Positions 14,142-37,470 of a stretch of 64,000 bases of DNA are shown here, piece by piece; position 1 is the stretch's first letter; every line of letters begins with the position of its first letter. Under the pieces are notes generated by a model. It did no database searches. It was given only the letters and a program-made list of their open reading frames with translations, and had not been told where the DNA came from. The DNA is from Lytechinus pictus. Lineage: Eukaryota. The stretch is taken from contig NC_087250.1 in assembly GCF_037042905.1 (NCBI RefSeq), positions 4,342,001-4,406,000 of the forward strand, written 5' to 3'. Made by a program: the position numbers and the translations under genes.

Positions 14142-14193
14142 ATGGGATCTGCAGGTGTGGTGTGTGTCGTATTGGTTGTAGCCATTCTAATCG
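14142..14193 (+). CDS. FN3 receptor gene, exon 1 (signal peptide MGSAGVVCVVLVVAILI)
   Basis: ATG, a hydrophobic run, then a G|GTAAGT phase-1 donor. A paralogous exon lies at 63919-63970. Confidence 0.75.
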
Positions 14194-14439
14194 GTAAGTA
14201 TATCGGATGTGCCCATACTGCTAATGATGATTAAGCTGTATGTTATTGTGTATCAATCGTTTTTCGAAAATAAATATAAAGACAAAGTCATTTAGATTAG
14301 GGGCTTGTATAGCTCGCAAAGATTTTCTAGAGAGGCTTTATTTGTTTGATAACACCCCCCCCCCCGAAGAAAAAAAGTTTTCACTCCATAATTTATTGAA
14401 GGAGATTTAGAAAGAAAAAAAATTATATTAAACAGGAAA

Positions 14440-15066
14440 TGGCACCTGTAAACATAATGATTTTTTTCAACTATAATAATGATTTTCACCAGTATAATAC
14501 TCGTTCAGCTTCTCATTTTCATCTTCCACTGACCTCTAATAATCAAATTCATAATTCTTTTAAACATGCAGGACCTAGAATTTATAACAACTTAGATCCT
14601 ATAATTCGTTCTTGTTCAACAGCCTCCTCAATTAAAATTTTACTTAAAAGACAATTAATTAGTGGTTATTCATCTTGATTCCCTTTCCCTTTTCTAAACA
14701 TACATGTACCCTCCTCCCCCCTCTCTCTTCTCTCTTTCTCTCCTTTGTTTGAGTGCAATGGGTCATGGATGTGTGTTGGGTGTGGGCGATTCTGTGTTTG
14801 ATGTATGAATATATAATGATTACGTTATGATTATTAATGATTATTTGAATACCTGTAAAGGGGCAACTGCCTAACAAGATTTTAATCTTTTTGGTTGCCT
14901 CTTACCATATGTTGATTTTTTTTTTACATGAATGTATAAATTATATTTATTTGTTGTATATTTATTTGTTTTATGTTTTGTTACATTTATGCATTTATAT
15001 ATTATGTTATTTTACATTGTATTTGACTATTTTTATATGGTTAATAAATGAATTGAATTGAATTGA
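14440..15066 (+). mobile_element. 3' stub of a CR1/Crack-like LINE with a (TTGAA)n tail
   Basis: HQYNTRS...FHLP...SFKHAGPRIYNNL resembles the end of ORF 28862-30034. The tail is aataaatgaattgaattgaattgaa. Confidence 0.65.
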
Positions 15067-15539
15067 AAATGACAGGCAAAACAAAACGATTTTCACCAAA
15101 ACATCACGTTGATTTTTTTTAGAAAAAATATTTTCGAAGCCCCGAAAAAAGAAAAGAGAGAGACTAAAAATAAAAGACGAATGCATCCAAAACGTATTTT
15201 ATATCAGGGGCGTCGATCCATTTTCAGATTAGGGGGGCAAAATCATTAACGTTCCAAAGGCGCTCGATCGTACAAAACACCCACCCACACACACACACAC
15301 ACATATATATATATATATATATATATATATATATATATATATATATATATATATATATATATATATATATTATACACACACACACACACACACACACACA
15401 TATATATATATCTGTATATATATATATATATATATATATATTGTAAAGAAATGGATGAAGAGAACAATGGTAGGCGTAGCTTAAATCAAAGTTCCCCAGA
15501 GCTATCTACCCTTTGGAAAAATTGGTGATGCCGAAAAAA

Positions 15540-15609
15540 TGTCTCTGCCGGGAATCGAACCCGGGCCCCCAGCTTTGAACGCCGGTGCCTTAACCACTAG
15601 ACCAGAGAC
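15540..15609 (-). ncRNA. tRNA-like cloverleaf (probable SINE head, tRNA-Glu-like body) with TCA at the anticodon position
   Basis: GTCTCTG-GTCT AGTGGTTA AGGC-A-CCGGC GTTCAAA GCTGG-GGGC-CCGGG TTCGATT CCCGG-CAGAGAC-A. All four stems pair, but the linker nt 8-9 are missing. Confidence 0.6.
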
Positions 15610-35510: not shown

Positions 35511-35519
35511 TGTTACAAC

Positions 35520-36210
35520 CGATAATGTTGCACCAACGCATAATGTCGCAGATTGCGACATTATGCCAAAAGCGTCCGACGCATAATGTCGCAGTCAACC
35601 CATAATGTCGTAGTTTTTCTAACGCATAACGTCACATGTCGCAACGCATAATGTCGCAGCAAAATTCTAACGCTTAACGTCACATGTCGCAACGCACAAT
35701 GTCACAGCGGTATTTCCTTCAGGACTCGAGCTACAGATAAGATATAAAATATGCTTTCACTTTTTGAGACACGAGAAAGAGAATTAAGTTATTTGGAAAT
35801 CAGGATTACTCTTTATATGGATATTTATCGGTTTATTGCCATTTCGTCTACTGCCTTCTCCCTACTGTCGCATGGTCTGATATAATTTCGTCTACCATTA
35901 GTTAGTCAACTATCAACATAGTCCAATAACCATTTCGTCTAATTATCATCTCGTCTAATAGCCAGTCGGTCTAATAGCCGTTTTGTTTATTATCATTTAG
36001 TCTAATTGTATTTTTTTTCAATTGGTCCAATATCCACTTTGTCCAATATCATTACGTCTATTACCTTTTGGCCTAATAGCCAATTGGTCTAATAACCACT
36101 TGGTCTACTCTCATTTCGTCCATGTTCCATTTGGTCTAACTTCAGTTGGTTCGCTATCACTTTGTCTAAACTCATTTGGGCTAACAATTATTTGGTATTG
36201 TTGCCATGGG
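35520..36210. repeat. Short-unit arrays (ACGCATAATGTCGCA)n and (CCATTTCGTCTA)-like, probably subterminal arrays of a non-autonomous element
   Basis: Direct reading at 35520-35710 and ~35838-36210. Confidence 0.6.
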
Positions 36211-37250
36211 TCCAATCACTGGTATTTTCTTCAAGACACGAGTAAAATAACTAAACAATTGACGGCAGCACTAGCCGAAAAAAGAGGATTTCGGATCTAA
36301 GACCAGGACACTCTTTTAATGTTTTGTAAATTGTAAAATGGATGGGTAACTAGGTATCTTCCTGCATTAATGTTAATAATGCAGGCAGAAGTTCTTTTGA
36401 TATTCTAATCTGAAACTGGATAATTCAAGCACGTTATAAATATATAGAACAAGCTGCATATCTTAATTAACTTAGGTCGTCGTTTTTTTAAGATTTAGAC
36501 CTAGAATTTAGGCATTTTGAATACATGTTTTAATCATTTCATTTTATTTACTGTTTTCCGTTTCACAATGTTATATATAATGAACATATCATAAAAATAA
36601 AAAATATAACAAAACATAACATCTTATAAAACATAATAAGGCCTATAGATTTGATAAACACAATTAAGAACATTAAACTGCCTTAAATGATTTTGTTTTG
36701 TATTTAAGAGTAAGACGGAGAGGCTGCCGAAAATAAGCAATGCTTGTTTGTAAGGCCAGCCCCAAAACTTAGTTTCATTACCTAATTTTACACACATGCA
36801 TAAATACAACTGTAATAGTAAAAACAATAATAATAATAATTATCGATGTACACTTTGCAAAGCAAATCAGAACTGGATTTATCGATCTATCTGTTTATCT
36901 ACCTATCCATCTATCTATCTAATATCTATCTATCTAATACGTATTTATCGGTTCATATATATTTCTATATCTATCTATATATCTATCTATATTTATTTAC
37001 CTTTCTTCTATTAATCTATCCACTTATAATTTATCTCTCCATCCATCTATCTATTTATCTATCTGTCTTATGTGTATCTGTTTAAATATATATGTCTATC
37101 TGACTGTCTATTTATCTTCCAATCTAATATCAACTCATTTGTTTAACTTATTATGTCTGTTTATCTACTAGTATTTATCTTTCTACGACAGACCACCTAA
37201 TTCGTCCGCATGACGAATTAAAATCGATTTTTTTTTTCTTTCATTCTCAG

Positions 37251-37470
37251 TTACATCAAGTTGAAGCGGCGAAGTAATAATAGCATTGGATCTCTGGAAA
37301 ATAACCTCAGCCAGTGCATCGTTGCCGCCATACCAACGCAACCAACAACAACCAACATACGCAATGTCTATGCTGAATGCAGTGATATCGAGAACGATTA
37401 CGAAGAGATGATTACGAAGAACAAAAACGTCAGCAAATATGGGTCTATAACAGGGGGGAGAATTGTATGA
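37251..37470 (+). CDS. FN3 receptor gene, exon 7 (cytoplasmic tail with Tyr motifs, stop)
   Basis: Strong acceptor (T)nCTTTCATTCTCAG|. The phase-2 join gives SYIKLKRR, a basic stop-transfer. Motifs NVYAEC, NDYEEM, SKYGSI. AATAAA at ~37681. Confidence 0.75.

Follow-up and report, generated by a model that had tools for sequence, protein, structure and literature searches.

The stretch of DNA analyzed here consists of 64,000 nucleotides (nt) of the sea urchin Lytechinus pictus (positions 4,342,001 to 4,406,000 of the forward strand of contig NC_087250.1; hereafter, the window), and it carries between positions 14142 and 37470 a seven-exon gene for a protein with three fibronectin type III (FN3) domains, a predicted transmembrane (TM) helix, a short tail, and no catalytic domain. 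An initial annotation of the window had described this gene as hidden and as not assignable to any named gene, and had read in its tail a combination of activating and inhibitory tyrosine motifs. In this study we examined the gene model, the architecture and relatives of the protein, and the conservation of the tail tyrosines, and we weighed the possible functions of the protein against each other.

Gene structure and identity

The seven exons had been proposed with lengths, GT-AG sites and matching phases adding up to 1518 nt and 505 amino acids, and this structure was recovered exactly, with every exon located (Table 1). The spliced translation has a single terminal stop and the gene spans 23.3 kb. 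All introns are GT..AG, the 12 splice sites are all canonical, and the intron phases are 1-1-1-1-1-2, with exons 2-5 being symmetric phase-1 exons. The gene is not hidden: its translation is identical, at 505 of 505 residues, to an annotated RefSeq protein, XP_063956800.1 (P0070), which bears the name 'twitchin-like [Lytechinus pictus]', and on account of this identity the exon model cannot be a product of chance. The protein is also colinear from the initial Met to the stop with XP_041467133.1 of L. variegatus (409 of 506 alignment columns identical), and a search with the translation of exon 5, the largest of the FN3 exons, gave as its best match a 99%-identical L. pictus protein, followed by relatives in L. 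variegatus and Strongylocentrotus purpuratus. XP_054757427.1 (P0003, 345 amino acids, 97% identical), an earlier model from L. pictus, comprises only exons 3-5. Judging from these comparisons, it is practically certain that the locus is an ordinary protein-coding gene, already modeled by RefSeq, and that its identity and architecture are as described here. The gene model is already known and the gene is functionally uncharacterized; a literature search with names, accessions and LOC identifiers returned no account of this FN3 family, with the proviso that supplementary tables could mention the loci.

The sole soft spot of the model is exon 2, for which five open 48-nt AG..GT candidates can be recognized within intron 1. 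Among these, the best splice signals are those of the candidate at 19209, which also codes for the peptide seen both in the L. variegatus orthologue and in RefSeq; those at 18712, 21077, 21097 and 21928 were rejected, as they do not match either protein. Some variation is conceivable also at two other junctions. At the acceptor of exon 6 a second AG lies 6 nt downstream (window positions 30967-30973), such that an alternative in-frame acceptor is possible; at the same exon 5/6 junction one residue distinguishes isoforms X1 and X2 of L. variegatus, neither of which is as long here as the L. pictus protein. Read-through of the exon 5 donor (27840-27913) is open for 24 codons and leads to a hydrophobic C-terminus, whose first ten residues, GALCFILLSL, are also the ends of models P0005 and P0080 of L. 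pictus and P0072 of L. variegatus. The shared end may mark a conserved short isoform, perhaps one whose C-terminus resembles a glycosylphosphatidylinositol signal, or it could reflect truncated automatic models of recent duplicates. Four sequencing runs, all from one study, share words with the window (5-14% of words), and none of them is recorded as RNA.

Table 1. Exons of the FN3 gene and tyrosine motifs of its tail (positions in the window; ITIM, immunoreceptor tyrosine-based inhibitory motif; AF2, AlphaFold2; pLDDT, predicted local distance difference test).
Feature	Positions	Strand	Length, phase and signals	Content	Basis
Exon 1	14142-14193	+	52 nt; ATG at 14142, donor gtaagt	First 17 codons (residues 1-17 of XP_063956800.1); first part of N-terminal hydrophobic segment	
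Exon 2	19209-19256	+	48 nt, phase 1-1; acceptor ttatttag, donor gtgagt	Remaining hydrophobic segment and linker ending in SNP	Matches orthologue residues 18-33 and RefSeq model
Exon 3	22858-23163	+	306 nt	FN3 domain A, residues 34-135, with Cys67 and Cys117	Pfam fn3 E 3.9e-6, 27.4 bits; tblastn 91% to P0004; AF2 beta-sandwich, pLDDT ~74-87
Exon 4	25161-25493	+	333 nt	FN3 domain B, residues 136-246, with Cys169 and Cys225	Pfam fn3 E 3.6e-5, 24.3 bits alone (just below 25-bit cut-off); orthologue identity 95%
Exon 5	27483-27839	+	357 nt	FN3 domain C (Cys280, Cys331) and start of Thr/Pro-rich stalk, residues 247-365	Pfam fn3 E 8.4e-6, 26.4 bits; matches 86-99% to Lytechinus models
Exon 6	30967-31168	+	202 nt; acceptor aacag, donor gtaagc	Remaining stalk with Cys 384, 392, 395 and 409; most of predicted TM helix (from ~31110)	
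Exon 7	37251-37470	+	220 nt; acceptor ttctcag, TGA at 37468-37470	End of predicted TM helix, KLKRR stop-transfer, 69-residue putative cytoplasmic tail, stop	Stop position is that of the orthologue
Di-tyrosine core	37363-37410	+		N471-V-Y473 ... Y483-E-E-M486	N, V, Y, D, E, Y and E invariant in 5 of 5 tails, three species
SKYGSI (ITIM-like)	37432-37449	+			Fits [SIVL]xYxx[IVL] in 1 of 5 tails; not conserved

Architecture and topology of the protein

The series of three FN3 domains, a Thr/Pro/Cys stalk, a TM segment, the basic sequence KLKRR and a tail of about 70 residues, as originally proposed for this protein, is borne out by Pfam, by hydrophobicity and by an AlphaFold2 model (the tail having 69 residues). 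Pfam fn3 matches the whole protein in three stretches with E = 2.1e-18 and 66.7 bits (cut-off 25), and there is no other significant domain; the fn3 scores of single exons sit at or just below the Pfam gathering score (25 bits). In the Kyte-Doolittle profile two hydrophobic windows can be recognized, one at residues 4-28, with values up to 3.07, and one at residues 414-436 (411-438, with the peak at 414-432). The AlphaFold2 model, which was calculated with a 16-row family alignment (mean pLDDT 67.3, predicted template modeling score 0.38), consists of three beta-sandwiches with pLDDT ~75-92 and of two helices, at residues 3-30 and 412-443. With pLDDT <50, both the stalk (352-416) and the tail (436-505) are predicted to be disordered. 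KLKRR occupies residues 437-441, and the three tyrosine motifs of the tail are NVYAEC (471-476), NDYEEM (481-486) and SKYGSI (494-499).

The predicted TM helix is thus followed by a basic stop-transfer sequence and a putative cytoplasmic tail. Since KLKRR follows the second hydrophobic segment, five N-glycosylation sequons are found between the two segments, and the cysteines of the intervening region are paired, the FN3 region probably faces outward. In each FN3 domain a conserved Trp precedes a G[DN]GPxCG motif, which is followed 50-56 residues later by a second Cys; in the AlphaFold2 model the first Cys lies where strand C starts and the second where strand F ends. Because these are neighboring strands of the FN3 fold, it is reasonable to predict one disulfide per domain (Cys67-Cys117, Cys169-Cys225 and Cys280-Cys331).

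The fate of the N-terminal segment, which had been taken for a signal peptide, is less clear: with a hydrophobic run of ~23-25 residues, its cleavage is uncertain. The segment might be instead an uncleaved, permanent anchor, in which case both termini would be cytoplasmic and the FN3 region would form an extracellular loop; we consider this a real possibility, if not the one that we would expect. The hydrophobic run is unusually long and is modeled by AlphaFold2 as part of one helix (3-30), and long h-regions favor signal anchors. In addition, the paralogue models P0001, P0002 and P0014 carry before this segment basic or Cys-rich extensions that resemble a retained cytoplasmic N-terminus; these extensions, however, belong to automatic gene models, and the small residues at positions -3/-1 (V-Y-S and V-I-S, residues ~18-24) would permit cleavage. 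The permanent anchor concerns only the topology of the protein, and is compatible with any of the functional readings discussed below.

Catalytic domains and structural neighbors

The public name of the protein is an automatic misnomer. Twitchin and titin kinases are intracellular proteins with Ig I-set domains, a Ser/Thr kinase and no membrane segments, whereas the urchin protein has neither Ig I-set domains nor a kinase, and does have membrane segments; for these reasons 'twitchin-like' is wrong. A giant muscle kinase of the twitchin/titin type was rejected, as Pfam recognizes only fn3 (plus sub-threshold fn3-like matches) and there are two membrane-type segments. No Pkinase or Y_phosphatase match was obtained with Pfam in XP_063956800.1, and no kinase or phosphatase domain was present in 150 of the 152 plus-strand open reading frames (ORFs) of at least 40 amino acids located downstream, where only endonuclease and reverse-transcriptase domains of long interspersed nuclear elements (LINEs) were recognized. 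No further copies of the family were found within the window, as tblastn with six family proteins matched only exons 3-7. The proposal that the receptor is kinase-less stands, because its stop coincides with that of the orthologue, 150 of the 152 downstream ORFs contain no kinase or phosphatase domain, and the tblastn matches are confined to these exons.

A Foldseek search of the PDB returned at least 500 tandem-FN3 matches at 14-21% identity. Tie2 FNIIIa-c (5utk) is at rank 2 and RPTP mu (2v5y) at rank 16 among the matches listed; thick-filament proteins, Tie2 FNIIIa-c, sDscam, contactins, titin and RPTP mu lie no more than two orders of magnitude apart, and fibronectin is also among the matches. 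As examples, the solved structures of Tie2 (5utk), sDscam (7y8s), contactin-4 (7mro), RPTP mu (2v5y) and titin A84-A86 (8bnq) likewise contain three consecutive FN3 beta-sandwiches, with E values of 1.9e-16 to 3.3e-14 for the solved receptors; by contrast, the urchin protein is without the Ig, EGF, MAM, kinase and phosphatase domains of such receptors, and no single family stands out. A sequence search of the PDB gave weak, generic FN3 matches (E 4e-5 to 6.5e-3). The special kinship to Tie receptors and type IIB RPTPs that had been suggested on the basis of their 'GDGP' FN3 domains is not supported, being one resemblance among many. Membership in either of the two families, Tie receptor tyrosine kinases or type IIB RPTPs, was rejected, as the stop lies 69 residues past the TM helix and no kinase or phosphatase domain was matched in the protein or in 150 of the 152 downstream ORFs; a class I cytokine receptor of the gp130 type was also rejected, as WSxWS is absent in 5 of 5 proteins checked. 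Comparisons with the ESM Atlas provide leads only, with scores within the range of chance: FNDC4/5, Dscam and gp130-type FN3 membrane proteins for the whole protein (scores ≤0.90), and neurexin/syndecan-type tails, opalin and SCIMP for the stalk, TM helix and tail (scores ≤0.85).

A family of echinoid FN3 proteins

With the orthologue as query, a HMMER search of 1.84 billion representative sequences gave 64 matches with E ≤1e-3, of which only 20 had E ≤1e-10. The top 13 rows (E ≤1.5e-17) carry the hallmark motif of the family; eight of them are named, all from Lytechinus or Strongylocentrotus, and five come from unnamed records. Rank 14 and those below it are occupied by generic FN3 proteins, from nematodes, archaea and other organisms. 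Provisionally, the family appears to be restricted to echinoids. The hallmark, G[DNGSE]GPxC[GA], occurs 66 times in 23 family proteins, the rows of which include isoforms and near-identical paralogues and are not independent; in 65 of the 66 motifs (same non-independent rows) the second Cys follows at a distance of 49-57 residues, and in the remaining case the protein ends before that point.

The number of copies of the repeat motif varies from one to eight per paralogue. As an example, in the exon types of our gene the L. pictus paralogue LOC129263236 (P0001, 972 amino acids) has the order A-A-B-A-B-A-B-C, a pattern that fits duplication of symmetric phase-1 exons. This protein and the other echinoid paralogues with multiple FN3 domains (LOC121417169 of L. 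variegatus, 833 amino acids, and LOC100889398, LOC115927504 and LOC115927425 of S. purpuratus) share with the protein studied here the three FN3 subtypes, GDGPxCG with its second Cys, a hydrophobic segment followed by NP, the stalk and the TM helix. Most of these models, however, are without the di-tyrosine tail, and among the S. purpuratus proteins fetched the tail is found only in LOC115927425. Close paralogues in L. pictus are P0074, P0080, P0005 and P0012. In L. variegatus, the 'twitchin-like' isoforms X1 and X2 (XP_041467132.1 and XP_041467133.1) and the paralogue XP_041467486.1 have the same seven-part architecture, start and stop, and keep the NVY and YEE-type tyrosines; they differ from the L. 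pictus protein in that their tails are 42-44% identical to it, have YEEI rather than YEEM and no ITIM-like motif, and in that they lack 1-2 residues at the exon 5/6 junction.

Conservation of the tail tyrosines

Five tails could be aligned: that of XP_063956800.1, two from L. variegatus, one from the L. pictus fragment LOC129263040, and one from S. purpuratus LOC115927425. NVY and YE[ED][IM] were each recognized by regular expression in all five, with a distance between the two tyrosines of 10 residues in four tails and of 11 in one. The invariant positions of this core hold even in the S. purpuratus tail, whose overall identity is only 21%. Identity to the L. variegatus orthologue amounts to 86-95% in the FN3 exons, to 42% in the tail as a whole and to 67% in its 18-residue core, and because of this difference the two tyrosines appear as conserved islands within a fast-evolving tail.

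The initial annotation had assigned to this tail a p85-type YxxM and an ITIM-type SKYGSI, and had named conservation of the tyrosine motifs in homologues as one way to check the assignment. Two tyrosine positions come through this comparison in 5 of 5 tails, but the activating and inhibitory labels do not. YxxM is found in one tail of five, that of L. pictus XP_063956800.1, the others having YEEI (three) or YEDI (one); SKYGSI also fits its consensus in that tail only, as at the corresponding position two Lytechinus tails keep the Tyr with a Glu at +3, and in the other two nothing is aligned. The labels 'p85' and 'ITIM' depend on residues peculiar to L. pictus. A strict immunoreceptor tyrosine-based activation motif (ITAM), Yxx[LI]-x(6-8)-Yxx[LI], was matched in none of the five tails, residue +3 from the first Tyr being C, R, R, C or G, and NPxY, YxN and WSxWS were each absent from the same five sequences. 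What is present in every tail is YE[ED][IM], which resembles the pYEEI docking sequence of the Src family and fits also the YxxPhi sorting consensus, itself matched in 5 of 5 tails.

Surrounding DNA

The window is AT-rich and contains many microsatellites and retroelements. From 480 to 9260 there are copies of a Penelope-like retroelement in a nested tandem and inverted arrangement, with RVT_1-containing ORFs at 1536-4412 (- strand) and 6168-8261 (+ strand), one of them with a GIY-YIG match of 21.1 bits (cut-off 22.6). The arms are 99-100% identical, as in 1343-3506 versus 6291-8454 (2164 nt), and the direct copies are ~4228 nt apart; the array gives the impression of having been inserted or rearranged very recently, or else of an assembly artifact. 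Inside the gene, intron 1 holds at 15743-18650 a tandem duplication of ~1.46 kb (94-98% identity) with long (AT)n microsatellites on its flanks; intron 5 contains an uninterrupted reverse-transcriptase ORF of 427 codons (28751-30034, + strand; RVT_1 E 2e-27), and intron 6 a LINE with pieces of PHD finger, endonuclease and reverse transcriptase spread across several frames (32853-35600, + strand). Further LINE pieces follow the gene at 38974-41324. An open frame of 526 codons at 44424-46004 (+ strand) contains about ten acidic repeats of 14 residues (period 42 nt, 77-81% matches) and has no Pfam match; it may belong to a large exon of some unrelated repeat protein, or may be open by chance across a minisatellite. 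Finally, a 352-nt unit is present twice with 100% identity at 55255-55955, and another repeat pair, at 53240/53852, is 99% identical.

Possible functions of the protein

The features described above can be interpreted in the light of what is known of receptors without catalytic domains. The protein would most likely be a non-catalytic binding or adhesion receptor of the cell surface, whose strongly conserved FN3 domains would bind a ligand or a counter-receptor outside the cell. The only conserved part of the tail, NVY-x(9,10)-YE[ED][IM], would be a tyrosine-phosphorylation module, which when phosphorylated might dock proteins with SH2 domains. The optimal motif for SH2 domains of the Src family is pYEEI, the consensus for p85 is YxxM, and that for ITIMs is [SIVL]xYxx[IVL]; with respect to these, the di-tyrosine core would fit best the Src-family pYEEI type, and not ITIM or p85. 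We regard phosphotyrosine docking by the core as a tentative suggestion that may well turn out to be wrong, and the explanation as a whole, comprising the gene, its architecture and the docking mechanism, as nearly balanced between acceptance and doubt, with a slight inclination to the latter.

Several observations weigh against a docking role. The conservation of the tail is derived from five sequences only, four of them from Lytechinus and two of these being paralogue/isoform pairs, and searches with orthologue residues 405-495 and with a tail profile for longer proteins returned only the L. variegatus cluster. Many family models are without this tail: the S. purpuratus models P0002 and P0007 end a few residues past the TM helix, P0010 and P0011 end inside it, and P0078 has an unrelated tail. 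For this reason the di-tyrosine module would not be family-wide, unless the tail-less models are incomplete, as they may be. Moreover, YE[ED][IM] also satisfies YxxPhi and the rest of the tail is fast-evolving, and the SH2 specificities assigned here by consensus motifs are putative.

The dual nature of the YE[ED][IM] sequence leads to a different view of the protein, as a surface protein for adhesion or matrix binding without phosphotyrosine signaling, in which YE[ED][IM] would be an endocytic or sorting signal of the YxxPhi type with acidic residues that tune trafficking. This is rather unlikely in our estimate, even if the occurrence of YxxPhi in every tail agrees with it, as do a tail that is short, predicted to be disordered and otherwise poorly conserved, an ectodomain with the 86-95% conservation expected if binding were the main function, and several paralogue models with almost no tail. 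A plain sorting signal, however, leaves unexplained the second invariant Tyr (that of NVY) 10-11 residues away and the invariant D and E between the two tyrosines; sorting and docking roles are also mutually compatible. Considerably less probable is an immune-type receptor that combines an activating motif (YxxM/p85 or ITAM-like) with an inhibitory ITIM in SKYGSI. Both motifs are literally present in XP_063956800.1, and the spacing of the tyrosines is within the range of ITAMs, but the counts across the five tails (no strict ITAM, ITIM in one, YxxM in one) speak against this combination, and the ectodomain is highly conserved between species, unlike that of fast-evolving immune receptors. The protein does have in common with the non-catalytic ITAM/ITIM receptors a single-pass, kinase-less organization and a short disordered tail with two conserved tyrosines 10-11 residues apart; it differs from them in the failure of all five tails to match a strict ITAM, in the confinement of the ITIM to XP_063956800.1, and in an ectodomain made of FN3 rather than Ig or lectin domains.

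It would be very surprising, finally, if the gene were a recent duplicate within a tandem family, now silent or in decay, and its model only a computational prediction. The close L. pictus paralogues and the abundance of retroelements in the introns are in keeping with such an origin, but the frame of 505 codons is intact, no splice site departs from the canonical form, the ectodomain has been preserved across species to the extent noted above, and the divergence of the tail is patterned. Returning to a surface receptor with a docking tail, a more far-reaching version would see the family as echinoid-specific FN3 receptors with one disulfide per domain and no enzymatic domain, a subset of which couples binding to Src-family kinases through NVY-x9/10-YE[ED]I, a degenerate ITAM-like unit whose origin would be independent of the immunoreceptors of vertebrates. 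We offer it as a long shot.

As a discovery the gene carries little weight, since an identical protein is in RefSeq and its orthologues are annotated. The gains are modest: 'twitchin-like' is not a correct public name for a kinase-less membrane protein with three FN3 domains, and this protein belongs to a small, exon-modular FN3 family with a Cys pair in each domain, whose named members are all from Lytechinus and Strongylocentrotus. Y473 and Y483 are the only conserved tyrosines of the tail; because of this, it is they, rather than the ITIM-like or YxxM readings, that signaling experiments should target. Lytechinus pictus is a genetic model among sea urchins, and a knock-out would be feasible. 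Echinoderm egg activation proceeds through a Src-family-kinase/PLC-gamma pathway. The signaling molecules of this pathway are reported not to be all known (PMC11593052). If the coupling to Src-family kinases were true, expression on eggs or coelomocytes would make the protein a candidate for a surface receptor upstream of this pathway, or for an innate immune receptor.

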